Source: Patescibacteria group bacterium
GTDB taxonomy: Bacteria; Patescibacteriota; Patescibacteriia; XYB2-FULL-38-15
Assembly (NCBI GenBank): GCA_041737355.1
Contig: JBGSRW010000008.1
Location: forward strand, 24,466 to 88,465
Reading direction: 5' to 3'
DNA: 64,000 nucleotides
The notes under the pieces were generated by a model, which was not told the origin of the DNA, searched no databases, and saw nothing but the letters and a program-made list of their open reading frames with translations. Below, one piece after another: positions 238 to 49,640 of this stretch (position 1 is its first letter; each line of letters begins with the position of its first letter). The translations under genes were made by a program, and so were the position numbers.

Positions 238-1866
238 ATGATTAAAAATTTGCTGAACGGAGAATCTAAAACAATTACCGGGGCTGCTCTTCTTTTGGGA
301 GCAGCTTCTTTGGCGTCCCGTTTTTTGGGAGTTATCCGCGACAGGGTTCTGGCCGGACAATTCGGGGCGGGCGATACTCTCGATGTTTATTACGCCGCCT
401 TCCGTATCCCTGATTTTATTTTCAATCTCCTGATTTTGGGCGCTCTCTCGGCCGGCTTCATTCCAATTTTTACCGCGGCGCTTTCTTCAGCGAAAGAGAG
501 GGGGGATAATTTTGGCAAGGCGTGGGATATCGTGAGCGGACTGATAAACATAATGGGCATTCTTTTAATTTTTCTTTGCGGTTTGTTTATCGTTTTAAGC
601 CCTTTTATTGTTCCGGTTATCACTCCTGGTTTTGGCGCGGAAAAAATGGCACTGACCGTGACAATGACCCAGATCATGATGCTTAGTCCGCTTTTTTTGG
701 GTTTGAGCAATATTTTCGGCGGAGTTCTCCAATCCTTCAAAAGATTTTTTATTTATTCCCTGGCTCCTATTTTTTATAATCTCGGTATTATTCTCGGAGC
801 TTTATTTTTTACCAAATGGTGGGGAATTTGCGGTTTGGCGGTCGGGGTAATTCTTGGGGCGATCGCCCATATGCTGATCCAGCTACCGGCTGTTGTTTCC
901 CTGGGTTACCGTTACCGGTGGATTTTCAATCTTGCCGACCAGAATGTCCGGCAAATCGGCCGGCTTATGATTCCCCGGACTCTCGGTCTGGCCGTTTCTC
1001 AAGTCAATCTGGTGGTGATGACAGTTATTGCCTCGACTCTTGTTCCGGGAAGTCTCGCCGTTTTTAATCTTGCCAACAATCTCCAATATTTTCCGATCGG
1101 AATCATCGGTATTTCTTTTGCCGTCGCCGCTTTTCCGGTTTTGGGGGAATGCGCGGCCGGCGGGCGAAAAGAGGAAATGGTTAAAAATTTTTCCCACTCC
1201 GTCCGGCAGATTTTGTTTTTTATCGTTCCAGCCGCTGTTCTGCTTTTGGTCTTGCGTGCCCAAATTGTTCGCGTTATTTTTGGATCGGGTGAATTTGATT
1301 GGGAGGATACGATTTTGACCGCCGATACTTTGGCTTTTTTTGTTACGAGTTTGTTTGCCCAAGCCCTGGTTCCGCTTCTTGCCAGATTTTTTTACGCGTT
1401 GCAAGATACTAAAACGCCCTTTTTTATTGGTTTATTTTCAGCCGTAGTTAATGTTTTTTTAGCAATATATATGGCCGAAAGATGGGGCGTGATCGGCCTG
1501 GCCGCGGCTTTTTCGGCTTCCAGTATTTTAAATTTTTGTCTTCTTTGGATTTTGCTGCGGGTAAAGTTCGGTTCGCTTGATGAGAAAAGGATTCTCGGTT
1601 CGGCATTTAAAATCAGCGTGGCCGCGGTTCTGATGGCGTTCAGTATCCAGGGCATGAAAGCCGCTCTCGCGCCATTCGTTGATATGCAGACTTTTTTGGG
1701 TATTTTTGGTCAAGGTTTGGGAGCCGGCTTGGTTGGCCTTATTGTTTTCGTTATTTCCGGATTTCTCCTCGGTTCAAGGGAAATGTTCGCGGTCCGCGAC
1801 GCGGTGAAGTACAAATTATTCAAAATAAAAAGGCCGATTATTAATGATGAGGAGGGGCAAAGGTAA
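238..1866 (+). CDS. murJ: lipid II flippase MurJ/MviN
   Basis: 542-aa polytopic membrane ORF. The N-terminus ASRFLGVIRDRVLAGQFGAGDTLDVYYAAFRIPDFIFNLL is typical of MurJ. Confidence 0.85.
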   Translation: MIKNLLNGESKTITGAALLLGAASLASRFLGVIRDRVLAGQFGAGDTLDVYYAAFRIPDFIFNLLILGALSAGFIPIFTAALSSAKERGDNFGKAWDIVSGLINIMGILLIFLCGLFIVLSPFIVPVITPGFGAEKMALTVTMTQIMMLSPLFLGLSNIFGGVLQSFKRFFIYSLAPIFYNLGIILGALFFTKWWGICGLAVGVILGAIAHMLIQLPAVVSLGYRYRWIFNLADQNVRQIGRLMIPRTLGLAVSQVNLVVMTVIASTLVPGSLAVFNLANNLQYFPIGIIGISFAVAAFPVLGECAAGGRKEEMVKNFSHSVRQILFFIVPAAVLLLVLRAQIVRVIFGSGEFDWEDTILTADTLAFFVTSLFAQALVPLLARFFYALQDTKTPFFIGLFSAVVNVFLAIYMAERWGVIGLAAAFSASSILNFCLLWILLRVKFGSLDEKRILGSAFKISVAAVLMAFSIQGMKAALAPFVDMQTFLGIFGQGLGAGLVGLIVFVISGFLLGSREMFAVRDAVKYKLFKIKRPIINDEEGQR

Positions 1867-3644
1867 TGCGGGAAAAAATTAGAAATTTTTGTATTATTGC
1901 TCATATTGATCACGGAAAGTCGACTTTAGCCGACCGTCTTTTGGAATTTACCGGAACGGTAGCTAGGCGGGATATGAAAGATCAAATGCTTGACATGATG
2001 GATCTTGAACGCGAAAGGGGAATTACCATCAAGCTTCAGCCGGTGCGCATGGATTACAAAGAACATATTTTAAATTTAATTGATACGCCAGGACACGTCG
2101 ATTTCAACTATGAAGTCTCTAGGTCACTTGCCGCCGTGGAAGGCGCGCTTCTTTTGGTTGATGCGACGCAAGGTGTCCAGGCCCAGACGCTCGGTAATTT
2201 ATATTTGGCACTGGAACAGAATCTAACAATCATTCCGGTAGTCAATAAAATTGATCTTAAAAATGCCGAAGTGGAAAAAACCGTCCAGGAAATTACCGCC
2301 CTGATCGGCTGCAAAAAGGAGGAGGTAATTTTGGCTTCGGGGAAAAGCGGGGCCGGAGTTCCGGAAATTTTGGAAGCAGTTGTTAATAAAGTTCCTTCGC
2401 CAAAAGGAGAAATAAGTAAACCGCTGAGGGCGTTGATTTTCGATTCAAAGTACGACGACTACAAGGGAGTCGTCGCTTATGTCAGAGTTGTGGACGGCGA
2501 AGTAAAAAGGGGGGATAAAATATATTTGGCGGCCACCAAAATCGAAAGCGAAGTTTTAGAGGTTGGATATTTTAAACCAAAGTTTGTTCCGGCCGGAAAA
2601 TTATCAGCCGGGGAAATCGGTTATATTGTGACCGGGCTCAAGGAAATAGAAAGATGCCGGGTCGGCGATACTATAACGGTTCACGATCCGGATCTGACAG
2701 TCCAAAGTTTACCGGGGTATAAAGAAGTTAAACCGATGGTTTTTGCCGGAATTTTTTGCAAGGAAGGGGACGATTTTCCGAAACTGCGCGAAGCAATTTT
2801 AAAATTAAAATTGAACGATGCGGCTCTGACTTTTGAAACCGAGCAGTCCAAGGCGCTCGGCTTCGGTTTTCGCTGCGGTCTTTTGGGTTTGTTGCATCTT
2901 GAAATTGTGGAAGAGCGTCTGCGGCGAGAACATAATCTTGACGTGATTGTTACCGTGCCGTCGGTAGCGTACCGTATTACCAACAATAAGGGAGAAGTGT
3001 TGATTATTAAAAGTCCGTCGGAATTGCCCGACATGAGCCATATCAAATTGATCGAAGAGCCGTGGATTAAAATTGATGTGGTTTCTCCGAGCACCTACAT
3101 CGGCGGTATCATGCAAATGGTGCAGGAAAAGAGGGGAGTATATATCGACACGGAATATTTGGATGCCGACCGGGTTATCTTGCATTATGAAATTCCTCTC
3201 TCGGCAATTCTTGTGGATTTTTACGATAAATTAAAAAGTGTGAGCTCCGGCTATGCTTCATTGAATTACGAATTTTTCGGATATAGGGAGGCCGATGTTT
3301 TGAAAATGGATATTTTGGTGGCGACCGAACCGGTTGAGGCGCTCGCGACAATCGTCTACCGCGACACGGCCCAGGATGTCGGGCGGAGAATTGTCCAGTC
3401 TTTAAAAAAAGTTTTGCCGCGCCAGATGTTTGAAGTTAAAATCCAGGCGGCGCTTGGCGGGAAAATTGTCGCCTCGGAACACTTGCCGGCGATGAAAAAG
3501 GATGTGACAGCCAAGCTTTATGGGGGAGATGTAACAAGAAAGAATAAATTGCTTGAAAAACAGAAAAAGGGCAAGAAAAAGATGAAAGCGTTGGGCAAAG
3601 TTGACATTCCACCTGAGGCATTTTTAGCGGTTCTGAAGAAATAG
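1866..3644 (+). CDS. lepA: translation elongation factor 4 (LepA)
   Basis: 592 aa with a GTPase G1 motif (AHIDHGKST) and DTPGHVDF. The C-terminal LepA-type domain is present. The ATG overlaps the murJ stop (TAATG). Confidence 0.95.
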   Translation: MREKIRNFCIIAHIDHGKSTLADRLLEFTGTVARRDMKDQMLDMMDLERERGITIKLQPVRMDYKEHILNLIDTPGHVDFNYEVSRSLAAVEGALLLVDATQGVQAQTLGNLYLALEQNLTIIPVVNKIDLKNAEVEKTVQEITALIGCKKEEVILASGKSGAGVPEILEAVVNKVPSPKGEISKPLRALIFDSKYDDYKGVVAYVRVVDGEVKRGDKIYLAATKIESEVLEVGYFKPKFVPAGKLSAGEIGYIVTGLKEIERCRVGDTITVHDPDLTVQSLPGYKEVKPMVFAGIFCKEGDDFPKLREAILKLKLNDAALTFETEQSKALGFGFRCGLLGLLHLEIVEERLRREHNLDVIVTVPSVAYRITNNKGEVLIIKSPSELPDMSHIKLIEEPWIKIDVVSPSTYIGGIMQMVQEKRGVYIDTEYLDADRVILHYEIPLSAILVDFYDKLKSVSSGYASLNYEFFGYREADVLKMDILVATEPVEALATIVYRDTAQDVGRRIVQSLKKVLPRQMFEVKIQAALGGKIVASEHLPAMKKDVTAKLYGGDVTRKNKLLEKQKKGKKKMKALGKVDIPPEAFLAVLKK

Positions 3645-3663
3645 ACTTAAAAGTTTAAAAGAG

Positions 3664-3695
3664 AAAAATCACCTGAGAATGGTGATTTTTTGTTT
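3664..3695 (+). terminator. intrinsic terminator after lepA
   Basis: Stem AAAAATCACC (3664-3673) pairs with GGTGATTTTT (3681-3690) and is followed by a T-rich tail. Confidence 0.7.
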
Positions 3696-3766
3696 ATTTA
3701 TGACAATTTATTTTGGCTAAAATAAGCCAAAAGATAGGATTATTTTAGAAATAGTGTCAAAAGCCC

Positions 3767-3795
3767 TTGACAAAATCTAAGATACGTGTTATACT
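3767..3795 (+). promoter_or_regulatory. consensus sigma70-type promoter of the GC-rich island
   Basis: TTGACA (3767-3772), a 17-nt spacer, then TATACT (3790-3795). The -35 context is CTTGACAAAATCT. Confidence 0.7.
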
Positions 3796-3859
3796 TACTT
3801 GTTAAGCTGAAATAGGCTTAAAATAAAAAAAGTGCTTGTCGTGTCAAGTTCTTTACAAA

Positions 3860-4044
3860 GTGCCAGAGAAATTTGGAGGAGGAAGTCTTCGCGGACCATT
3901 TATTGGTAACCGCGTGACTCGGTGTTCGGTTGAGTTAAAGCTCGGTTTTCCCGTTTGGGACTACTAAGATTCAACTCGCCAAAACGCCATTGCTGTTCCA
4001 ATGCTAATTGGAGCGGCGCGCTCACCTCCAAATTCCTCTGGCAC
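3860..4044 (+). promoter_or_regulatory. structured 5' leader domain closed by a 20-bp stem
   Basis: GTGCCAGAGAAATTTGGAGG (3860-3879) pairs with CCTCCAAATTCCTCTGGCAC (4025-4044) at 19 of 20 positions. The stem encloses about 145 nt with several local hairpins (for example CGCGGACCA..TGGTAACCGCG and CCAAT-GCTA-ATTGG). It lies between the promoter and the SD of the 4131 ORF. Confidence 0.55.
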
Positions 4045-4130
4045 ATCTCCGTGAAAAATCGGAGGGCCAAAGGTCAGACTGTGGATGTTCCCGGTCTGAT
4101 TTTAGTAAACGCAAATAAGGAGGTTTTCTG

Positions 4131-5384
4131 ATGGAGAACGGCAGCAAGGAGATTGTGGTTGGCAAGGAGCCGACGGCTACGGCCGAGGCGTTCCTCGAGC
4201 CGCCGAGCGAGGACGACGAGTGGTTGCTCCTGGATTTCAATCCGGCGGCGACCGAGTCCGCGCCGGCCGTGCCCGAGACGCCGAAGCCCAAGCCGCCGCG
4301 CGTCTGCGCGATCTGCCAGCACCCCTCCGGGAATTCGGTGGGCAAGATCAAGCGCGGGCGGATCGCCGAGGTCGAGCACGAAGGGATGAAGCTGCTCACG
4401 CTCGAACCAATCTGCGAACCGTGCGGCGAGAAGTTGCCGCCCGAGGAGCGGAAGAGGCTCTTCAAGGCGGGGTACCTCATCTCCCTGATCGGCGAGAAGA
4501 ACCGCGAGATGCGCGAGTTCGAGGCGGCCAAGGCCTACTGGGCTGCGGTCTTCGCCGGTACGGCAGAGCGGATGCCCGAGGCTCGCAAGACGCCCGAGGA
4601 GATGCTCTCCTGCGGGGTGCCCGGCTGCCCCCGCTGTCACGATCAGGTCGGCCACAAGGTCGGCCACTTCGTGGCGATGACGATCGGCGGCATGCCGACG
4701 CTTCTCGGGGTCTGCTCCTTCCAGGCCGCGGCCTTGGCACAGTGCGGGGTCGAAAAGAAGGGCATCGTCGTGACGACGAAGTTCTCCGTGGCCGCCCCGA
4801 TCGTCGAGGCGGAGAACGCCAGGCTCCAGGCCTTCGAGAAGGCCAAGAGTTTCTGGCTCGCCGTGGCCGAAGGCGAGGCGGCGGTCGAGGCGCGGGCCGA
4901 GAAGACCGAGCGCGGCGACATCTACCGCTGCGGCGTCCCCGGCTGCAAGTGCCGGGAGCACGGCGACCGGCCGGTCGACTACTTCGTGGTCTTGGACGGC
5001 CAGCCCGAGATGCCCATCGCGGGTGTCTGCCGATACCAGTATGCGGCGCTCCGGACCTCCGGGGTGAAGATCTTCGCCGCGAACAACAACGACGGGATGG
5101 GCCTCGCGCGGTGCGCCAAGCACCGCAACTGGCTCCTCGGCCAGGCCAAGAGGGCCATCCGCGACGTCCGGAGGCCGGACGGAATCGGCGGCGGTCTCTC
5201 CCGTTTCCGCTCGCCCGAAGAACAGGCGCGGATCCGCGAGGAGAAGCGCCGGACGTTCGAGGAGCGCGAGGCCAAGCGCCGCTCCCGGCAACTCGAGCGG
5301 GCCAAGGCCTCCTCCAGCAAGGCCGGCTGCGGCAAGAAGGCCAGCAGCAAGAAGGGCGGCAAGGGCGGCGGCAAGAAGCACTAG
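4131..5384 (+). CDS. orphan protein with three tandem Cys/His-rich modules and a Lys/Gly-rich C-terminal tail (gene A)
   Basis: SD AAGGAGG (4117-4123) sits 7 nt before the ATG. Codon third positions are GC-rich in this frame. The ORF has three repeated modules and the tail ...SSSKAGCGKKASSKKGGKGGGKKH. Confidence 0.7.
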   Translation: MENGSKEIVVGKEPTATAEAFLEPPSEDDEWLLLDFNPAATESAPAVPETPKPKPPRVCAICQHPSGNSVGKIKRGRIAEVEHEGMKLLTLEPICEPCGEKLPPEERKRLFKAGYLISLIGEKNREMREFEAAKAYWAAVFAGTAERMPEARKTPEEMLSCGVPGCPRCHDQVGHKVGHFVAMTIGGMPTLLGVCSFQAAALAQCGVEKKGIVVTTKFSVAAPIVEAENARLQAFEKAKSFWLAVAEGEAAVEARAEKTERGDIYRCGVPGCKCREHGDRPVDYFVVLDGQPEMPIAGVCRYQYAALRTSGVKIFAANNNDGMGLARCAKHRNWLLGQAKRAIRDVRRPDGIGGGLSRFRSPEEQARIREEKRRTFEEREAKRRSRQLERAKASSSKAGCGKKASSKKGGKGGGKKH

Positions 5385-5419
5385 CTGGCCGGCCGCTCTC
5401 CCACCAATTTGTTCTTTTC

Positions 5420-5542
5420 TTGGAGCAAGTAGTCTGTGCAATGCAGACACTGTTCGTCAATCACTCTAAGGTGAACGGCGACAGGATCTTGCTCCAAGTC
5501 CTTTTCCTCCAAATCAGCGTAAGTTGGTCTGGAGAAAAGGGA
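5420..5542 (+). repeat. 123-nt structured repeat, copy 1 (R1), just after the gene A stop
   Basis: Identical base for base to 6114-6236. It contains a perfect 10-bp closing helix, TTGGAGCAAG/CTTGCTCCAA, around two hairpins. A second imperfect hairpin of about 12 bp follows (5499-5542). Confidence 0.9.
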
Positions 5543-5597
5543 ATTAGCTCTTTGGCAATTTCGGCGCATAGCGCCGTAGAAAGAAAGGAGATAGTTG

Positions 5598-5930
5598 ATG
5601 GTTCAGGTTCTGATGCTGGCCCTGTTCAGCGTCGCCAAGCGCGACGAACGCGAGGCGAGCGACGAGGGCAGTGAGACCGACGCGGTCGAGCTGCCCGAGG
5701 ATTCGGTCAACTGGCGGGCGGTTCGTTGGCTGGGCGTCGCGAAGATGCCGCGCCGTCGGGGTGGTCGGGCGGCCAACCGTTGCCTTGCCGACATCCCGCC
5801 GCCACCGGTTCGTTTCTCGCGCGAAGGGTTTGACGGACTTCATTCGTGGAAGCGTCAGACTCCGGCCCGCCGTCAGTGGGCCAAGCATCTTCGGAAATCT
5901 TGGGGGCGCGGAAAGAAGGTGGAGGTATGA
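5598..5930 (+). CDS. orphan Arg-rich protein, 110 aa (gene B)
   Basis: SD AAGGAG (5585-5590) sits 7 nt before ATG 5598. Third positions are GC-rich. The stop overlaps the next start (ATGA at 5927-5930). Confidence 0.55.
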   Translation: MVQVLMLALFSVAKRDEREASDEGSETDAVELPEDSVNWRAVRWLGVAKMPRRRGGRAANRCLADIPPPPVRFSREGFDGLHSWKRQTPARRQWAKHLRKSWGRGKKVEV

Positions 5931-6106
5931 AGAAGGAGTGTCGCAAGAGCGTGCCGGAGGTCAAGACGGGAGAGGGTGTTTACATCCTCCGCGTCATGCC
6001 CCAGCCGTCCGTCTGCGCGCACGAGGCGGTCCGTCCCTCCACCCGGCCGATCATACGCTCCGCCATCAAGATCGTCGGCCAGCACGGCCGCGACTGTCTC
6101 CCATAG
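5927..6106 (+). CDS. orphan protein, 59 aa (gene C)
   Basis: ATG 5927 is preceded by GGTGGAGG and overlaps the gene B stop. Third positions are GC-rich. The ORF ends at TAG 6104-6106, directly before repeat copy 2. Confidence 0.5.
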   Translation: MKKECRKSVPEVKTGEGVYILRVMPQPSVCAHEAVRPSTRPIIRSAIKIVGQHGRDCLP

Positions 6107-6113
6107 TTTGTTC

Positions 6114-6236
6114 TTGGAGCAAGTAGTCTGTGCAATGCAGACACTGTTCGTCAATCACTCTAAGGTGAACGGCGACAGGATCTTGCTCCAAGTCCTTTTC
6201 CTCCAAATCAGCGTAAGTTGGTCTGGAGAAAAGGGA
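6114..6236 (+). repeat. 123-nt structured repeat, copy 2 (R2), just after the gene C stop
   Basis: 100% identical to 5420-5542. Weaker similarity extends upstream (CTCCCA..TTTGTTC). Confidence 0.9.
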
Positions 6237-6286
6237 TTCCAAAATTTTTTAGCCATTTTTACGGCTAGTCAGATCCCACGCAAGGG

Positions 6287-6315
6287 CACCGCCAGTTGGC
6301 GGTGTTTTTGTTTTT
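6287..6315 (+). terminator. intrinsic terminator closing the GC-rich island
   Basis: CACCGCC (6287-6293), loop AGTT, GGCGGTG (6298-6304), then TTTTTGTTTTT. Confidence 0.8.
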
Positions 6316-6321
6316 AAAATG

Positions 6322-6330
6322 TGCTATAAT
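6322..6330 (+). promoter_or_regulatory. extended -10 promoter (TGCTATAAT)
   Basis: An exact TGCTATAAT. The same 9-mer recurs at 8646, 16113, 17286, 26872 and 38529. Confidence 0.55.
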
Positions 6331-6360
6331 AGTCCAATATTTATTTTACGTAATGTTTTT

Positions 6361-6459
6361 ATGAAAAAGAAAAATTTGCAGAAAATAGTATGGATAATTG
6401 TCTCAGCTATTGTAGTTTTTTCCATGGTTGTCTGGACAATCGGGCCAATGCTGTATTAG
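6361..6459 (+). CDS. possible small hydrophobic protein (32 aa)
   Basis: ATG..TAG encodes MKKKNLQKIVWIIVSAIVVFSMVVWTIGPMLY, a single transmembrane-like segment, downstream of the 6322 promoter. There is no SD and it is too short for the ORF track. Confidence 0.3.
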   Translation: MKKKNLQKIVWIIVSAIVVFSMVVWTIGPMLY

Positions 6460-6489: not shown

Positions 6490-8220
6490 ATGAAGTGGAA
6501 AGTCGCCGAACCGATCAGCGAAGAATTCAGAAATAAATTTCCGGAGATCGATCCGGTTATTTTGCAATTACTCGCTAACCGTGGGGTAAAAACCCAGGAA
6601 CAGATTGATGAATTTCTGTATCCAGATTACGGGCCTGATATTCACGATCCGTTTTTATTTTTGGATATGGAAAAAGCGGTCGAGCGGGTTTTCCGGGCGG
6701 TGGAGAAAGGAGAAAAAATTACGGTTCATGGCGATTACGACGCCGACGGAGTTTGCTCGGCATTGATCGTAGTCAGTACGCTCGAAGCCATGGGTGCTAA
6801 AGCCGAGGTTTATCTGCCGCACCGCGAACTCGAAGGGTATGGACTGAATATGCAAACAGTTGAAGAGTTGGGGAAAAGAGGGACAAATCTTATTATTACA
6901 ACCGACTGCGGCATCAGTAATCGGGAAGAGATAAAAAGAGCGGTTGAACTTGGAATGGAAGTAATTGTCACCGACCATCATGCCGAGCCGCTTAATTTGC
7001 CCGAGGCAGCTTTGGCAATTATCAATCCCCATTTGGCGCGAGAAAAGTATCCTTTTAAGGAATTGTCCGGGGCGGGAGTAGCTTTCAAATTCGTTCAGGG
7101 GATTTTACATAAAATAAAAACAACGGCGCCAAAAATAGAATTCAGGGAAGACCCGGAGGGATTTGAAAAATGGCTTCTGGATCTTACGGCTATTGCCACG
7201 ATTGCCGACATCATGCCCCTCTTGGGCGAGAACCGGACGATCGTAAAATACGGCTTGATTGTCCTGAACAAAACCAAACGGCTGGGATTGAAAAAAATGA
7301 TTGATTCGCTGGGCTTGAACAAGGCAAAATTGCTTGACGCAAGAAACGTATCTTTTCAGATTAGTCCGCGGCTGAACGCGGCCGGCCGGATCGACCACGC
7401 CAACCAGGCCTATGAACTTTTAAAAACATCGGACGGGAACGAAGTTGATAAATTGGTCGCGGCCCTGAATAAAACCAACGAAGACAGGCAAGCGCTTTCC
7501 GAGCGCGTAACGGCCGAAGCCAAGGAGAAAATAGGAGAAGAGGTTGGCGAAAGAAAAGTTTTGTTCGCCGTGGGTAAGGGTTGGCCGATAGGTATTGTCG
7601 GATTGGTAGCCGGGAAAATAGCCGATAATTTATGGCGGCCGACTTTTATTATGGCAGAAAAAGAGGGGAACATTATGGGGTCGGGAAGGAGTATTCCGGA
7701 ATTTGATATTATGGAAGGGCTCAGGGAGGCGAAAGAATTTTTGTCACATTACGGCGGACACGCCGGAGCCTGCGGATTTACCCTGAAAAATAAAAAAGAT
7801 CTGAAGAGGTTTGAAAAGACCCTGGAGAAATTTGCTGAAAAAAAATTAGCCGGCTCGGAACTTGTCCCAAGCCTGAATATTGACTCGGAAGTTAAACTGG
7901 AAAAAATAAATTGGGAGCTTTTCGAGCTCTTGGAAAAATTTTCACCATTCGGGAAGGGGAATGAGCGGCCGAGATATTTGGGGAGGGGTTTGACGGTCGA
8001 AAGCTTTGAAGGGGTGGGAAATAATGGAAATCATTTACGCATAAATTTGAGCCACGAAAACGGCCAAAAGAAAAAATTTATAGGTTTTTGTTTTGGAAGC
8101 TGGTGCGAGAAATTAAAAGCGGGAGATAAAATTGATGTAGTTTTTGAAATTGATGTTAATGAATGGAACGGGAACAGGGAACTGCAGATGAAAATTATTG
8201 ATTTAAAACATAGCGAATAA
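6490..8220 (+). CDS. recJ: single-stranded-DNA-specific exonuclease RecJ
   Basis: 576 aa with DHH-family motifs (HGDYDADGVCS, TTDCG, VTDHH) and a DHHA1-like GGHAGACG. Confidence 0.9.
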   Translation: MKWKVAEPISEEFRNKFPEIDPVILQLLANRGVKTQEQIDEFLYPDYGPDIHDPFLFLDMEKAVERVFRAVEKGEKITVHGDYDADGVCSALIVVSTLEAMGAKAEVYLPHRELEGYGLNMQTVEELGKRGTNLIITTDCGISNREEIKRAVELGMEVIVTDHHAEPLNLPEAALAIINPHLAREKYPFKELSGAGVAFKFVQGILHKIKTTAPKIEFREDPEGFEKWLLDLTAIATIADIMPLLGENRTIVKYGLIVLNKTKRLGLKKMIDSLGLNKAKLLDARNVSFQISPRLNAAGRIDHANQAYELLKTSDGNEVDKLVAALNKTNEDRQALSERVTAEAKEKIGEEVGERKVLFAVGKGWPIGIVGLVAGKIADNLWRPTFIMAEKEGNIMGSGRSIPEFDIMEGLREAKEFLSHYGGHAGACGFTLKNKKDLKRFEKTLEKFAEKKLAGSELVPSLNIDSEVKLEKINWELFELLEKFSPFGKGNERPRYLGRGLTVESFEGVGNNGNHLRINLSHENGQKKKFIGFCFGSWCEKLKAGDKIDVVFEIDVNEWNGNRELQMKIIDLKHSE

Positions 8221-25740: not shown

Positions 25741-26808
25741 ATGCGAATGCCAAAGGGTAGAAGGCCGCACACTGTGCTTTGCGCTAACCGGCGAGCCGGC
25801 TGGCGCTTTGAACAATGGTCGGAGTTGGACCAGTGGAGCCTCGAGGCCGGCATCAGAACATATGCCCTATCAGAGATCGAAGAGCTCGATCCCGTCATCG
25901 CGAATTTCGATGACGAGACGCTGCTTCTCCTGATTTACGGCGGGGACGGAACCCTGCTTCAGATTATGAACAGCTTGCTCCGGCGCAAACGGCGCAAGGG
26001 CAAGCCAAAGCCGAAAATGCCGATCATTGTGCCCGTCGGAGGAGGCACGATGAAACGCCTGCCGCGCTGGGCGCTTTGGAACGGCACGCCGGCTGAAAAT
26101 GCCATGACAGCCCTTGAACTTTTCGAGGGCAAGCGTCTGCCGTACCTGCCTCTTCCCTTGCTAAAAGTGGAGTGGGGTGGGCAATGCTACTTCGCGGTCA
26201 CTCTCATGGCTGGAGCCTTGGTTCGTATCATGCAGGAGTACTCGCGTTTCAAGACAACGCCGGCAATTGCCGGACTTTTTTCCGCCGGAGCCTTGGCCGC
26301 CGCGGCCTTTGACAGGCCAAAGTTTTTCACCAGACTCTACGGGCAAATCCGGGCCAAGGTGACCTCCGACGGAGAGGTTCTCGGGACCGAACGGTTCATT
26401 GTCGTGATTCGTGACGTTCTCGAGGAATTGATTTTCTCGATCAAACCGTACAAGGGAATCTGCGCGCCGGGCCAGTCCTTCTCTCTGGCCTACGCCATCG
26501 ACTACCACGAGGTGGCGCGAAAGTTTCCTTGGATTGTTGCGGGAGCGGTTCCCGGCAACGACCCCCGGTATTTCAATCGGCCGGCAAGTTTAACCGTAAT
26601 CGAGCCGCACGAGGAGATTCCCTTTACGCTCGACGGCGAATACTTTACGGCCAAGCCGGGCGAGACCATCAAGGTTTCCCAGGGGCCGGAAGTAAGAGTT
26701 GCCGTTAACCCGTTCGTTCATCTGACTCTTCTGAAACGGTTTTTGAATCGCGGCAGAAGCTTGAAGGAGGTCGTGAGTTACATTTTTCCTACGCCGAGAA
26801 AGAACTAG
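25741..26808 (+). CDS. DAGK_cat/NAD-kinase-superfamily protein (GGDGT motif), GC-rich
   Basis: LLLLIYGGDGTLLQIMNSLL...MPIIVPVGGGT matches the diacylglycerol/lipid kinase catalytic-domain pattern. It has a strong SD, and its composition differs clearly from its neighbours. Confidence 0.65.
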   Translation: MRMPKGRRPHTVLCANRRAGWRFEQWSELDQWSLEAGIRTYALSEIEELDPVIANFDDETLLLLIYGGDGTLLQIMNSLLRRKRRKGKPKPKMPIIVPVGGGTMKRLPRWALWNGTPAENAMTALELFEGKRLPYLPLPLLKVEWGGQCYFAVTLMAGALVRIMQEYSRFKTTPAIAGLFSAGALAAAAFDRPKFFTRLYGQIRAKVTSDGEVLGTERFIVVIRDVLEELIFSIKPYKGICAPGQSFSLAYAIDYHEVARKFPWIVAGAVPGNDPRYFNRPASLTVIEPHEEIPFTLDGEYFTAKPGETIKVSQGPEVRVAVNPFVHLTLLKRFLNRGRSLKEVVSYIFPTPRKN

Positions 26809-39947: not shown

Positions 39948-40814
39948 ATGCAAAAAAAGGAGATGTCTCCTGAAAGTGTGAGCGAGTGCGCTCGTCTGAC
40001 TGAAGCGGAACTGGCCAACTTGGGCGTTGTCCTTTCCGCCTACCGTTCTTTCCGAGGCGACCGGCGTCGACATATCGCCTACGTCACGATGCCGATCACG
40101 ACCGGCCGGCGGTTGCGCGACATCCTGACAACGCGCCACGCGAAGAGCGCCGCAGAACTTGCGGCCAAAATCGGCAGAGAGGCCTTTTTTGACCTCGTGA
40201 TCAGACCAAACATCGCGGAGGGAATTGCTTTTGCCGACAGAGTCGCAGCAAGGGATTCACTGCTTTGCGTTGCGCCTTCGGTGTTCAGTGCCAGGTGCTG
40301 GCAATGGTCGCAGGATGCCTACATGTCCCTTTGGTACCGCGTTCTGGGAGAAATGGCCGGAGCGCATTATCTCATGGACGGCTGGGAATACTCCGTCGGC
40401 GGCGTGAAAGAAGCGATGTTTTCCATGGCCATGCAGTGGCGCATCTTCCGGCGCTACAACATCCACAAGATGGCGCAGGCCTGGGGTCTAGAGAATTTTC
40501 ATCCCGGCATGAGCCCGCAAGCGGAAATAGCCGAGCTTGAGCGCATGTGGAGCATCCGCCTTTACGACGAACAGGGCAAGGAACTTCGCATCGATCAAAT
40601 CCTGGCGATGGTTGTTCGCGCAATCAAGGAGCTGGCAAAAAACGGCTTGCCGTACGAGGATCTGCTCGGCCCCGCCCGGAACCTGAAGGGGATGCCCATA
40701 CTGTCACCGCTTATCGGCGGCGGCAACCGGTATGACGAGCCGTTTGTTCCGGAAGTGACGGATGCGTACGTGATGGCGGCAGATGAGCTCGTGGCATTCG
40801 AGGCCGCCCATTAA
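39948..40814 (+). CDS. nucleoside 2-deoxyribosyltransferase-like (DUF4406-like) domain protein with an unknown C-terminal domain, GC-rich
   Basis: IAYVTMPITTG ... W.QDAYMSLWYRVLGEMAGAHYLMDGWEYSVGGVKEAMFSMAM fits my recollection of the DUF4406 pattern (hYhAGPhoG ... GWE.S.G...E...A). SD is AAAGGAGGGAGGG. Confidence 0.55.
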   Translation: MQKKEMSPESVSECARLTEAELANLGVVLSAYRSFRGDRRRHIAYVTMPITTGRRLRDILTTRHAKSAAELAAKIGREAFFDLVIRPNIAEGIAFADRVAARDSLLCVAPSVFSARCWQWSQDAYMSLWYRVLGEMAGAHYLMDGWEYSVGGVKEAMFSMAMQWRIFRRYNIHKMAQAWGLENFHPGMSPQAEIAELERMWSIRLYDEQGKELRIDQILAMVVRAIKELAKNGLPYEDLLGPARNLKGMPILSPLIGGGNRYDEPFVPEVTDAYVMAADELVAFEAAH

Positions 40815-45964: not shown

Positions 45965-46345
45965 TTATTTGATTTTTAGAAATGACTTAACTTTGGCGAA
46001 TAGAAGGGGATAGGTTTTCTTAATTCGCGGAGCGGACAAGACCTTCTTGATTGATACAGCGGTTCCTTTTGGAATGATGACGTTTTTTGGGAATTGGTCG
46101 CTGGTAAAATCAATTTCTTTACCGTTTGGCAGGCGATTCCAGAAGTGGGACATAAACGGCCGTTTTCTGATGACGGCGTAAAGGATTTTTCCGCCAAGTA
46201 ATTTTTGGACAACCGCAGAGGTTACCCGGCATTGGTCGGCGGCAGGATTTTTAGGATTAAACCTTCCGGTCCAGGAAGTTTCTTTGCCCCAAGAGGCCCG
46301 AAGCGCCAGACCAAGTTTTTTTTGATTTATTTTTCCAGAAGCCAT
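45965..46345 (-). CDS. hypothetical protein (YunG-like by recollection)
   Basis: 126 aa with WGKETSW..., QCRVTSAVVQKLLGGKILY and HFWNRLPNGKEIDFTSDQF. Confidence 0.5.
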   Translation of the reverse strand: MASGKINQKKLGLALRASWGKETSWTGRFNPKNPAADQCRVTSAVVQKLLGGKILYAVIRKRPFMSHFWNRLPNGKEIDFTSDQFPKNVIIPKGTAVSIKKVLSAPRIKKTYPLLFAKVKSFLKIK

Positions 46346-46361
46346 TTAAAAATATAATTAA

Positions 46362-46390
46362 TTGACCTTTAAATTTAAATTTGCTATAGT
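46362..46390 (+). promoter_or_regulatory. promoter of the GC-rich RNA gene
   Basis: TTGACC (46362-46367), a 17-nt spacer, TATAGT (46385-46390). Confidence 0.65.
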
Positions 46391-46396
46391 TTAATC

Positions 46397-46651
46397 AACT
46401 TGGAGCAGTCAGACTGGCAAGGGCTGCTCGCGCGCCGCGAAGCATGTTTCGGGCGCCAAGTTCTGCTAACCACCAGTTGCGGGGCTAAGTAGCGACGAGC
46501 GAAAAGCCTGCAATACCGCCCGCAGCGACCCGCTGAACCTCGCGGATCGCGAGCCGAGCATCCCTGCGCACCATGGGTAAAGTCCGACGTCACGTCGACG
46601 CGGTACCGTGGCTGAGCGCGAACTAATGCTCACTGGTGGTTTATTTTTTTT
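46397..46651 (+). ncRNA. unassigned GC-rich structured RNA, about 255 nt
   Basis: It has its own promoter. There is no SD-led ORF longer than 17 aa. A 5' domain is closed by AACTTGG/CCAAGTT (46398-46404 / 46456-46462). A second domain is closed by a 10-bp helix, AACCACCAGT/ACTGGTGGTT (46468-46477 / 46632-46641), followed by T8. Many GC hairpins lie inside (CTCGCG-GAT-CGCGAG, CAGCG-ACC-CGCTG, CGACG-TCA-CGTCG). Confidence 0.6.
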
Positions 46652-46670
46652 GGCTTAATTAAAATTTTTA

Positions 46671-46679
46671 TGTTATGAT
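46671..46679 (+). promoter_or_regulatory. extended -10 promoter (TGTTATGAT) of the helicase gene
   Basis: A TGnTATGAT 43 nt upstream of ATG 46722. Confidence 0.4.
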
Positions 46680-46721
46680 TTCTTAAAGAATTTTAGCAAA
46701 AATCAGGCTAAAAAGCAATTT

Positions 46722-49640
46722 ATGGCCGAGGATTTGTTGAAGGATTTAAACCAGGCGCAAAAGGAGGCGGTATCCCATGAAGAGGGGCCGCTTTTGATTG
46801 TGGCCGGCGCGGGGACAGGGAAAACAACCGTCATCACGCGGCGGCTGGCTTTTTTGATTTTGGAAAAGAAAATAAAGCCGGACGAAGTATTGGCACTCAC
46901 TTTTACGGAAAAGGCGGCCGGAGAAATGGAAGAGCGGGCCGACCAGCTTTTGCCTTACGGTTATGTTGATCTCTGGATTTCAACTTTTCATTCTTTTTGC
47001 GAGCGGATTTTAAAAGACCACGCGATCGAGATCGGTTTGCCGGGTGATTTTAAATTATTAAACCAGACCGGGCAATGGTTGCTCGTGCGCCAGAATCTGG
47101 AAAGGTTCAATCTTGATTATTACCGGCCGCTCGGCAATCCGACAAAATTTATCCATACCCTACTGAAACATTTTAGTCGGGCCAAGGATGAAGAGATCTG
47201 GCCGGAAAATTATCTTGATTACGCGGAAAATTTAAAACTTAATAAAGACAGCGCAATTGCCGAAGACAAAGACCGCCTCCTTGAAGTTGCGAGCGCCTAT
47301 CACGCTTACCAGCAATTGCTTTTGGAAAATAATGCCTTGGATTTTGGCGACCTGATAAATTATACCTTAAAACTTTTTCGTACCCGGCCGGCTATTTTGG
47401 AAAAATACCGGCAAAAGTTTAAGTATATTTTGGTCGACGAATTTCAGGATACCAATTGGGCGCAGTACGAGCTGATTAAAATGCTTGCCGCGCCCAAGAA
47501 CAATTTAACCGTGGTGGGCGACGACGATCAGTCGATTTATAAATTCCGTGGCGCCTCTATTTCCAATATTTTGCAATTTAAAAACGATTATCCGGATTGC
47601 CGAGAAATTATTATCACCGACAATTATCGCAACAAACAGAATATTCTCGATCTGGCTTATAAATTTATCAAACAAAATAACCCCAACCGGCTTGAGGCAA
47701 AATTGGGAATTGTAAAAAAGCTTGAGGCGAAGAGAGGGGGGGAGGGAATTGTTGAACATCTTCACGCCAAGACGGCCGACCAGGAGGCACGTACCGTTGC
47801 CGAAAAGATTTTGGAACTTAAAAAATCCGATAATTCTATAGGCTGGCAGGATTTTGCTATTTTGGTCCGGGCGAATAATCAGGCCGAAGCTTTCATGCAA
47901 GTTCTTGATCAATACGGAATTCCGTATCACTTTCTGGCTTCAGCCGGGCTTTATTCCAAGCCGGTGATTCTGGACATCATCGCTTATTTGAAAATGCTGG
48001 ATAATTATCACGAATCGACCGCGCTTTACAGAATTTTAAATATGCCGCTCGTCGATCTGCCTTATGACGATATTGTCGCCCTGAATTATTCTGTACGAAA
48101 AAAGAATTGGTCGCTGTATGAGGCGATGAAAAACGCCGCGGTGGTCGGAGTTTCCGGGGAAAGTTTGCGGAAAATCAATAAACTTCTCGGATTTGTTGAA
48201 CGGCATACGGGAATTGTCCGCGAACACGGCGTGAGTAAAGTGGTTTTCAAGTTTTTGGAGGATTTTAATTATTTGGCCAGTTTGACTAAAAAAGCGGAAA
48301 AAGACGATTTACGGGCGGTGGAAAAAATAAGTTATATCAATCAATTTTTAAAAAAGATAGATGACTTCGAACGGGTAAATACAGATAAATCCGTTAAAAA
48401 TTTTATTCTTGAACTTGAGATGGCGCTTGAATCCGGAGAGGAGGGATCACTGGCTTCGGAATTCGACGAGGGACCTGAAACCGTAAAAATCCTGACGGTT
48501 CACGGGGCAAAGGGTCTGGAATTCAAATATGTTTTTATTGTTAATCTAGTGGACCTTCGTTTTCCGTCTACCGACCGGAAAGAGCCGATAGAATTGCCGA
48601 ACGCCCTGGTAAAAGAAGTCTTGCCCGAGGGTGATATTCATCTTGAGGAAGAGCGTAGATTATTTTATGTCGCCGTGACTCGTGCTAAGGATGGAATATT
48701 TTTTACTTCGGCGGCCGATTACGGCGGCCAGCGGAAAAAGAAATTGTCCCGCTTCCTGGTCGAGCTTGGATTTGTCGCGCCGGAAATAAAAAATCCGACC
48801 GGCAATGTTTATTTCGACGAGGATACTGCCGTAAAGACAGAGGGCGTGGTCAAAAAAAGAATCTGGATTCCAAGCAAGTTCAGCTTTACCCAGCTTAAGG
48901 CGTTTGAAACCTGTCCGCTGCAATACAAATTCGCCCACGTGTTGGTCGTGCCGACGCGCGGTAAGTTTACTTTCAGTTTTGGGAAAACCATGCACGGGAC
49001 CTTGCAGAAATTTTTCGACCAGATAATTAAAAAAACAAATCATCAGCAGACAAGCTTGTTCGGAGAAGTTCCGGCGGAAGAAACAAACGGGTTATCGGTT
49101 GAAAGTCTTATTAAGCTTTACGATGAAAGCTGGATCGGCGATTGGTATGAAAGCAAAAGCCACGAAGAGGAATATAGGAAACTTGGCCGGGACAAACTCA
49201 AGGAATTTTATAAAATTCACGAAGGCAAATGGCCAAAAACAAAATTCCTAGAAAAGGGATTTAATCTTAAGATAGGGGATTACACGGTGCGTGGCGTGAT
49301 TGACCGGATTGACGAGATTCCCGGCGGCGTAGAAATTGTTGATTATAAAACTGGCAGCGTGCCCAAGGACGAAAAATTTTTGGATAAAGACCAGCTTTTG
49401 ATTTATCAGGCCGCAGCGAGCGAAGTATTGGGCGAAAAGCCGGCTCTTTTGAGTTATTATTATCTTGGAGCAAATCAAAAAATGTCTTTTATCGGCACGG
49501 ATGAGGAAGTCGGGGAAATAAAAGAAAAAATAATTGAAACTATCGAGGAAATTAAAAAAAGCGATTTTTCTCCCAAGCCGAGCTTGTTCAGCTGCAAGAA
49601 TTGCGATTTTAAGGATATTTGCGAACATCGAATCCTCTAA
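46722..49640 (+). CDS. UvrD/PcrA-type helicase fused to a C-terminal PD-(D/E)XK (Cas4/AddB-like) nuclease domain
   Basis: It has Walker A (AGAGTGKTT), DEFQDT and other SF1 motifs. The C-terminal region has ...CPLQYKF..., IDRID...VEIVDYKTG and CKNCDFKDIC (a 1+3 Cys pattern). Confidence 0.85.
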   Translation: MAEDLLKDLNQAQKEAVSHEEGPLLIVAGAGTGKTTVITRRLAFLILEKKIKPDEVLALTFTEKAAGEMEERADQLLPYGYVDLWISTFHSFCERILKDHAIEIGLPGDFKLLNQTGQWLLVRQNLERFNLDYYRPLGNPTKFIHTLLKHFSRAKDEEIWPENYLDYAENLKLNKDSAIAEDKDRLLEVASAYHAYQQLLLENNALDFGDLINYTLKLFRTRPAILEKYRQKFKYILVDEFQDTNWAQYELIKMLAAPKNNLTVVGDDDQSIYKFRGASISNILQFKNDYPDCREIIITDNYRNKQNILDLAYKFIKQNNPNRLEAKLGIVKKLEAKRGGEGIVEHLHAKTADQEARTVAEKILELKKSDNSIGWQDFAILVRANNQAEAFMQVLDQYGIPYHFLASAGLYSKPVILDIIAYLKMLDNYHESTALYRILNMPLVDLPYDDIVALNYSVRKKNWSLYEAMKNAAVVGVSGESLRKINKLLGFVERHTGIVREHGVSKVVFKFLEDFNYLASLTKKAEKDDLRAVEKISYINQFLKKIDDFERVNTDKSVKNFILELEMALESGEEGSLASEFDEGPETVKILTVHGAKGLEFKYVFIVNLVDLRFPSTDRKEPIELPNALVKEVLPEGDIHLEEERRLFYVAVTRAKDGIFFTSAADYGGQRKKKLSRFLVELGFVAPEIKNPTGNVYFDEDTAVKTEGVVKKRIWIPSKFSFTQLKAFETCPLQYKFAHVLVVPTRGKFTFSFGKTMHGTLQKFFDQIIKKTNHQQTSLFGEVPAEETNGLSVESLIKLYDESWIGDWYESKSHEEEYRKLGRDKLKEFYKIHEGKWPKTKFLEKGFNLKIGDYTVRGVIDRIDEIPGGVEIVDYKTGSVPKDEKFLDKDQLLIYQAAASEVLGEKPALLSYYYLGANQKMSFIGTDEEVGEIKEKIIETIEEIKKSDFSPKPSLFSCKNCDFKDICEHRIL

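Follow-up and report, generated by a model that had tools for sequence, protein, structure and literature searches.

We examined a 64-kb stretch of a Patescibacteria (Candidate Phyla Radiation, CPR) genome (contig JBGSRW010000008.1, positions 24,466–88,465; hereafter the window), in which a three-gene operon carries two kinds of structured RNA: a leader of ~330 nt in front of the first gene, A, and an element of ~125 nt, R, present once after gene A (R1) and once after gene C (R2). A first-pass annotation of the window had drawn attention to a 19-nt motif found in the leader and in both R copies, and had proposed a link from it to an unassigned RNA at 46.4 kb (the far RNA). Our preferred reading, to which we give a probability of roughly 50%, is that the motif spans the junction of two helices in each of two structured RNAs of one conserved operon, that the closing helix (P1) of the leader contains a look-alike of the Shine–Dalgarno (SD) sequence, and that R carries the same helix. 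The motif is real but was over-read, its signal being confined to the first 8–12 nt, and of the two it is the locus that holds the greater interest.

Two undescribed structured RNAs

The leader and R are two undescribed structured RNAs, both real and under selection. The structured part of the leader, comprising a junction domain and a terminator-like hairpin, spans about 250 nt. The leader domain (3860–4044, plus strand) is a four-way junction with helices P2, P3 and P4, closed by a 20-bp P1 in which 3860–3879 pair with 4025–4044 (inverted repeat I1; 20 nt per arm, 95% complementarity). Its fold has a z-score of −8.8 against shuffles, and 26 of the 82 predicted pairs show compensatory changes in an alignment of eight full-length leaders that includes the distant loci L094 and L177. 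P1 itself is near-invariant across these eight, with changes limited to one G-C to A-U swap and the two outermost pairs; its strands read GCCA[G/A]AGAAA[T/C]TTGGAGGAGGA and TC[A/G]CCTCCAAATT[C/T]CT[C/T]TGGC, and vary only at the bracketed positions. The 3′ strand, TCACCTCCAAATTCCTCTGGCAC (4022–4044, plus strand), holds an anti-SD-like CCUCC at 4025–4029 and is invariant at all but three positions. A small hairpin follows the four-way junction, and beyond it lies a conserved, covarying terminator-like hairpin (4069–4103, plus strand) with a short U run of 4–5 nt, a proposed expression platform that a simple terminator scan did not pick up. The domain sits, with covariation, upstream of distinct gene A homologues, as expected of a riboswitch-like cis-regulatory leader.

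R1 (5417–5548) and R2 (6111–6242), both on the plus strand, fold into a three-way junction formed by P1 (5419–5429 with 5488–5498 in R1), a P2 hairpin with an invariant GCAAU loop and a P3 hairpin, followed by a P4 hairpin. P1 comprises 11 bp and could stack on either P2 or P3. The fold z-score is −6.6 against shuffles. When 17 copies were aligned, 98.7% of cells were paired and 18 of 33 pairs showed compensatory change. Such change affects five of the six pairs in P2, seven of eight in P3 and five of nine in P4; in P1, nine of ten pairs never vary. On four of five measures, all 500 shuffles fell short of what was observed, and slid controls collapsed. R has many G-U pairs on the coding strand.

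From 13 R copies we built a covariance model (P1 CUUGGAGCA/UGCUCCAA, P2 with the GCAAU loop, P3 and P4). It matched R1 and R2 at 145 bits each, and neither the rest of the window nor the helicase-anchored loci scanned with it yielded another copy. The same model scored the leader at 7.4 bits (E = 6.5), which is noise, indicating that leader and R are distinct RNAs with only a helix in common. Across the whole window, no Rfam 15 family reached its gathering threshold. When the regions of the leader, R and the far RNA (3650–6350 and 46300–46720) were searched at E up to 10, only noise came up. A full-text literature search found no description of the leader or R RNAs.

We compared the window with eleven related loci. 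Over the aligned regions including flanks, identity to the window is 76–87% for the leader RNA and 61–95% for the R RNA, even though four-fold degenerate sites of lepA, the gene upstream of the operon, are near saturation in the same genomes, indicating that both RNAs are under strong purifying selection. For the proteins, identity to the window is 89–93% for LepA and 80–89% for RecJ (clade loci), and protein A is 25–58% identical between loci. Only in the window genome do R1 and R2 show 100% identity across 126 nt (5417–5542 and 6111–6236), which points to recent gene conversion in this lineage. In three relatives (L001, L007 and L008), R2 is a diverged paralogue, 61–69% identical to the window R1, whose fold is kept through compensatory changes.

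A closing helix common to leader and R

Apart from the three 19-mers, at 3873–3891 in the leader, 5420–5438 in R1 and 6114–6132 in R2, nothing in the window matches TTGGAGNANGNAGTCTNNG with two mismatches or fewer, and we confirmed the reported agreement of leader and R at 14 of 19 positions without gaps. Given the identity of R1 and R2 over 126 nt, the three 19-mers represent two independent instances rather than three. The expected count of 0 for the pattern search is circular, the pattern having been derived from the same copies. In 0.9 Mb of related Patescibacteria DNA, the motif pattern has no match at zero or one mismatch. The enrichment over shuffled sequence that would mark the motif as unusual was not borne out: a best ungapped 19-mer of at least 14 matches arose in 12% of dinucleotide-shuffled leader/R pairs, so 14 of 19 is not significant alone, and the far RNA compared with R in the same shuffle test also gave 12%. 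Gapped local alignment of leader and R (P = 0.28) selects another segment.

The first-pass annotation had described the motif as the 5′ strand of a domain-closing helix in every case, which holds only for its first 7–11 nt. In the leader copy (plus strand), UUGGAGG at 3873–3879 is the inner 5′ strand of P1, 3880–3884 form the junction, and AGUCUUCG, from 3885 on, supplies the 5′ side of P2. In the R1 copy (plus strand), 5420–5429 belong to the 5′ strand of P1, 5430–5431 to the junction and 5432–5437 to the 5′ strand of P2. The AGTCT part is thus a strand of P2, and for the far RNA the closing helix is a prediction only. Conservation in orthologous elements divides along the same line. The first half, YUUGGAG(G/C)A, which is the P1 5′ strand pairing with CUCCAA, shows no variation in eight full leaders or 17 R copies, and TTGGAGGAGGA is invariant in the eight leaders. 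The second half, AGTCTnnG, is a covarying hairpin strand, found as AGTCT, AGTCC, AGTTT, GGTTC, AGCTC or AGTCA in R and as AGTCT, AGTCC, A--TT, GGTTT, AATCC or ATTCT in the leader; since it evolves by compensatory change, the identity of leader and R there is accidental.

What the two RNAs truly have in common is a 6–7-bp helix, (C/U)UUGGAG:CUCCAA(G/A), in the same orientation and with the same closing role. The pattern of conservation argues that this first-half helix is constrained in sequence beyond base pairing. For a random 20-mer set against an 11-mer from this genome in the same orientation, the chance of an identical 6-mer is 3.3% and of an identical 7-mer 0.9%, figures that are suggestive and not conclusive. 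Coincidence would mean that each helix is constrained separately and that two RNAs of 130–190 nt happen to agree at 14 of 19 positions; the 12% of shuffled pairs that do as well, the gapped alignment that prefers another segment, the unconserved second half and the frequency of GGAG/CUCC-rich helices in these elements are all consistent with it. However, the common part is exactly the invariant part of both RNAs, its orientation and closing role are identical in the two, and the chance identity is only 0.9–3.3%, and we therefore consider coincidence quite unlikely.

The preferred reading gives the helix a role in translation. The SD sequence of gene A, AAGGAGG (4117–4123, plus strand), can be read straight from the sequence and is GGAGG in eight of nine orthologues and GGAGA in L177. 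With the 5′ strand of P1 omitted from folding, CCUCC at 4025–4029 is predicted to pair with the ribosome-binding region of gene A in four of four sequences (the window, L001, L094 and L177), its partner being the SD GGAGG in the centroid fold of the window, in L001 and in L094, and GGAG in L177. In this predicted alternative fold, the 3′ strand of P1a pairs with a segment just 5′ of the terminator-like hairpin, where L094 has compensating changes. The leader UUGGAGG would thus mimic an SD sequence (an ‘anti-anti-SD’), competing with the gene A SD GGAGG for the anti-SD-like CACCUCC; with P1 closed, the ribosome-binding site would be free, and with P1 open, it would be sequestered. We propose that UUGGAGG is frozen because of this three-way pairing constraint. 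With R carrying the same 6–7-bp helix, one partner, either a strand or a reader protein, could act on the mRNA at its two ends, with stabilization, processing and feedback on the leader as candidate roles.

On the proposed mechanism, the leader would have its closest counterparts among platforms that sequester the SD sequence, both riboswitches and RNA thermometers (SAM-II, preQ1 and ROSE/fourU), which have a structured 5′ domain, a closing-helix strand complementary to a downstream SD, an SD look-alike that competes for that strand, and a U-run hairpin after the structured domain. It differs from them in matching no Rfam family and in having a large four-way junction as its putative sensor; here the helix is repeated in 3′ or intercistronic elements of the same mRNA, and the genes it would control are orphans with G+C contents at third codon positions (GC3) of up to 0.93.

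Several points weigh against the reading we prefer. For the promoter, the terminators and the structure of the operon, the predictions go no further than consensus matches. The SD-mimic switch is a thermodynamic prediction, and because GGAGG and CCUCC never vary, covariation cannot probe their pairing. UCACCUCC equals the usual bacterial 16S 3′ end; that of the host lies outside the window. Such a switch also fails to account for the invariance of P1 in R, as terminal R copies have no downstream gene and the SD of gene B is sequestered elsewhere. Finally, GGAG:CUCC helices recur in leader P4, the leader linker hairpin, R P4 and the repeats of another genome (L065, described below), so that the chance of a common hexamer may exceed 3%.

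We considered whether R might itself be an SD switch for gene B and rejected this: the gene B SD is predicted to be held in a separate hairpin with the linker AGCUCUUU, away from R P1, and terminal R copies occur without a downstream gene. In every locus, R lies 12–45 nt 3′ of the gene A stop codon, even where only a terminator comes next. We infer that R is a 3′ or intercistronic element and not an SD switch. Long-range pairing between leader and R (inverted repeats I4 and I5, 79% complementary) was also rejected, as the R strand covaries with its local P4 partner and not with the invariant leader strand. A further 9-mer common to leader P1 and R P4, CCTCCAAAT, was set aside because it is not conserved in R orthologues.

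The frozen P1 of R suggests a sequence-specific reader or strand exchange with the leader. One version of this holds that a single trans-acting factor reads the invariant UUGGAG:CUCCAA helix at all three places as an operator or processing site. The factor might be protein A, in which case autoregulation or RNP assembly would result, or a double-strand-specific enzyme of the host, for instance RNase III. A helix that stays frozen while its neighbours covary is typical of sequence-specific recognition, and R always lies 3′ of A. Protein A combines three Cys4 repeats with a Lys/Gly-rich tail, and the duplex of leader P1 is 20 bp long. Yet no known RNA-binding fold or family was detected in protein A, which evolves fast (25–58% identity) against an invariant RNA helix, and an RNase III site needs about two turns (~20 bp) of near-continuous double-stranded RNA, for which the 11 bp of R P1 are short unless stacked on P2 or P3. 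We judge this version unlikely, if well short of negligible. A bolder version is a self-recognising mRNA, in which two new folds, at the 5′ end and behind each coding block, display one invariant UUGGAG:CUCCAA helix that is either read by the operon’s own zinc-ribbon protein or exchanges strands between the mRNA ends. If true, translation, processing or packaging would be coupled for an mRNA with a GC3 of 0.73–0.93, but we regard it as a long shot. The similar GC3-rich genes and structured repeats of L065 hint that this may be a wider phenomenon among Patescibacteria.

R was also set beside known repeated elements. Like the RNase III sites of T7 early mRNA and the 3′ stabilizers formed by repetitive extragenic palindromes and bacterial interspersed mosaic elements (REP/BIME), it recurs soon after stop codons in a polycistronic transcript and again before the terminator. 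Unlike them, it does not form a simple long hairpin: a three-way junction is joined to a further hairpin, and both an 11-bp helix and a GCAAU loop are invariant. It is also confined to one operon in the window and the helicase-anchored loci scanned. The RNA repeats of type III toxin–antitoxin systems are short tandem arrays directly upstream of the toxin gene, with a terminator between. This identity was rejected for R: 694 nt separate its two copies, each copy is found 3′ of a gene, and several loci have just one; PADLOC finds nothing.

The RNA at 46.4 kb

The first-pass annotation had extended the motif to the far RNA, suggesting either a common protein-binding or processing determinant or coincidence. 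Such a determinant is plausible inside the operon, where P1 is frozen and the other helices covary; the extension to the far RNA was not supported. The far RNA (46397–46650, plus strand) is a promoter-to-U-run unit to which no family could be assigned, and we do not count it in the system. It has a promoter-like site just upstream (TTGACC-17-TATAGT) and a long-range stem followed by U8. It does begin with AACTTGGAGCAGTCAGACTGGCAAGGG at 46397 and shares CTTGGAGCA with R, as described, and the gapped alignment needs three 1-nt gaps, not two. Its fold z-scores are −1.3 and −1.5, no better than shuffles.

A functional link could mean that the far RNA carries the same determinant, or that its 5′ end, ACUUGGAGCA, serves as a seed for pairing to the CUCCAAGU strand of either R or the leader. 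Only 2 nt separate the predicted 5′ end from an exact copy of the 9-mer CTTGGAGCA, which equals the invariant part of R P1. For a single pre-chosen target, the gapped alignment to R has P ~0.004–0.006, and the 5′ domain is predicted to form a three-way junction as well, one loop of which contains GCAA. The likeness to the motif is, however, at background level. Three other window loci equal or beat the gapped score of the far RNA against R (background ~3 per 64 kb), some six further sites in the window fit the two motif copies just as closely, and CTTGGAGCA recurs by chance within the helicase gene at 49464 (background expectation 0.28 per window). The R model gave no plus-strand match to the far RNA at E up to 10 with filters off.

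Conservation tells the same way. An nhmmer search found no homologue of the far RNA in 160 helicase-anchored loci (genome and metagenome contigs of related Patescibacteria), a search that leaves room for a copy elsewhere in the genomes that bear the operon, whereas the operon RNAs are conserved in the clade. In the closest relatives found (helicase identity 82–92%), the far RNA is missing at this position and other genes precede the conserved helicase promoter; one of them, L096, also retains the neighbouring YunG gene. We consider a functional link very unlikely and, without new evidence, not worth pursuing. The idea that an mRNA leader and some other RNA have one short determinant in common recalls autoregulatory operators that mimic a stable-RNA target, such as ribosomal-protein leaders and the operators of MS2 coat protein and T4 RegA. 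We rejected target mimicry of the ribosomal-protein type, because the supposed target, the far RNA, has no detectable homologue, the motif match is at chance level and no binding protein was identified.

The spot occupied by the far RNA (46346–46720) is variable. It lies between a YunG-family gene (45965–46345, minus strand) and the conserved helicase promoter, and holds a minus-strand open reading frame (ORF) of ~100 amino acids in L096 and a different gene in L015–L017. The nearest homologues of the helicase are in Patescibacteria and Falkowbacteria metagenome-assembled genomes.

An orphan operon between lepA and recJ

The operon stands out in a window of ~44–46% GC: G+C content is 62–70% at 4100–6160, between lepA (1866–3644) and recJ (6490–8220). 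Its order is promoter (3767), leader, A, R1, B, C, R2 and terminator (6315). The promoter-like site (3767–3795, plus strand; TTGACA-17-TGnTATACT) matches the consensus at 11 of 12 positions and gives a predicted transcript start at ~3802; L094 and L177 carry identical promoter text. The intrinsic terminator that ends the operon (6287–6315, plus strand) was read from the sequence as CACCGCC-AGTT-GGCGGTG followed by a U run, and L094, L176 and L177 have equivalents of this hairpin and U run.

Gene A (4131–5384, plus strand; GC3 0.93) encodes a protein of 417 amino acids with three Cys4 zinc-ribbon-like repeats, long helices between them and a Lys/Gly-rich tail. Gene B (5598–5930, plus strand; GC3 0.73) encodes a basic protein of 110 amino acids, and gene C (5927–6106, plus strand; GC3 0.87) one of 59 amino acids that is Cys-rich in orthologues. 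No credible family was found for proteins A, B or C in Pfam, PHROGs, PADLOC, NCBIfam or PDB sequence searches. That gene A might be a spurious ORF of GC-rich DNA was rejected, as its G+C contents by codon position are 0.64, 0.49 and 0.93 and its Cys pattern is conserved in homologues. A minus-strand ORF of 458 codons at 4074–5450, antisense to all of gene A, is an artefact and not a gene, and other long ORFs in alternative frames are likewise by-products of GC-rich coding. SD-like sequences precede only ~10 of 48 long window ORFs by a crude count, and the operon genes have strong SDs; A/T-rich sequence precedes most ORF starts in the window. ARAGORN found no transfer RNA or transfer-messenger RNA in the 64 kb. 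Between the operon terminator and recJ, a small gene for a membrane peptide (6319–6459; MKKKNLQKIVWII...GPMLY) with its own TATAAT-like box is present in the window, L001, L094, L176 and L177.

Relatives are few. Gene A has only eight close homologues, and 18 cluster representatives among 1.84 billion proteins. The contigs of the relatives, which come from sediment and groundwater samples, show the arrangement lepA – A – (B, C) – recJ, as in the window, and the locus is old and vertically inherited. The viral contigs searched held no R, leader or far-RNA pattern, leaving a phage origin without support. Third codon positions set the operon apart from its host, whose genes have a GC3 of 0.48. 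The A genes of five other loci (L001, L004, L007, L013 and L094) have GC3 values of 0.90–0.96 although their synonymous sites have turned over, and some force holds third positions at G or C in this one operon. Elsewhere in the window, GC3 is raised (0.68–0.69) in two more genes (25741–26808 and 39948–40814), both of which have a strong GGAGG as ribosome-binding site. A weak DAGK_cat match was obtained for one and no Pfam match for the other, and the two were possibly acquired.

Two loci have a different layout. In L012, positions 1752–3370 are rearranged: A stops short after the second of its Cys repeats and continues in frame into B, and downstream of this fusion come C, an R1-type element and B once more. 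L065, from another Patescibacteria genome, has three ~90-nt two-hairpin repeats on the minus strand (640–760, 1150–1272 and 1528–1662), each directly downstream of a small gene with a GC3 of 0.73–0.80. Their second hairpin (..UGGAGAAAG) is similar to R P4, with weak matches to the R model (E 0.04–0.18), and the repeats may be a related architecture.

Gene-then-palindrome units with conserved inverted ends and a composition unlike the host are also what integrons and clusters of attC sites lacking an integrase (CALIN) would present. R could accordingly be a DNA-level recombination site, and the GC-rich genes captured cassettes. An imperfect palindrome of ~125 nt does follow each GC-rich coding unit, with conserved inverted ends (TTGGAGCA ... 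TGCTCCAA) around a variable centre; the composition is foreign to the host, units are rearranged and duplicated in L012, and L065 has a comparable layout. Against this, there is no integrase, lepA and recJ flank every locus, and gene order is fixed even in deeply diverged genomes, in keeping with vertical inheritance. By the attC consensus, such a site is one bulged hairpin whose top strand begins with RYYYAAC and finishes with GTTRRRY; R is a branched three-way junction with a second hairpin, and its ends, CTTGGAGCA ... TGCTCCAAG, have the opposite order. The G-U pairs on the coding strand point to RNA, and a recombination site would leave the leader unexplained. We find this explanation barely credible.

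If the preferred reading holds, that of one helix carried by two structured RNAs with an SD look-alike in the leader, the motif marks two new RNA families of Patescibacteria, a riboswitch-like leader and a 3′ or intercistronic element, in a group whose structured-RNA biology is little explored. These RNAs would control an orphan operon whose position is deeply conserved, whose proteins evolve fast and whose third codon positions are 73–93% G+C in a genome of 44–46% GC. The invariant helix common to both ends of the mRNA would provide a concrete and cheap experimental handle.

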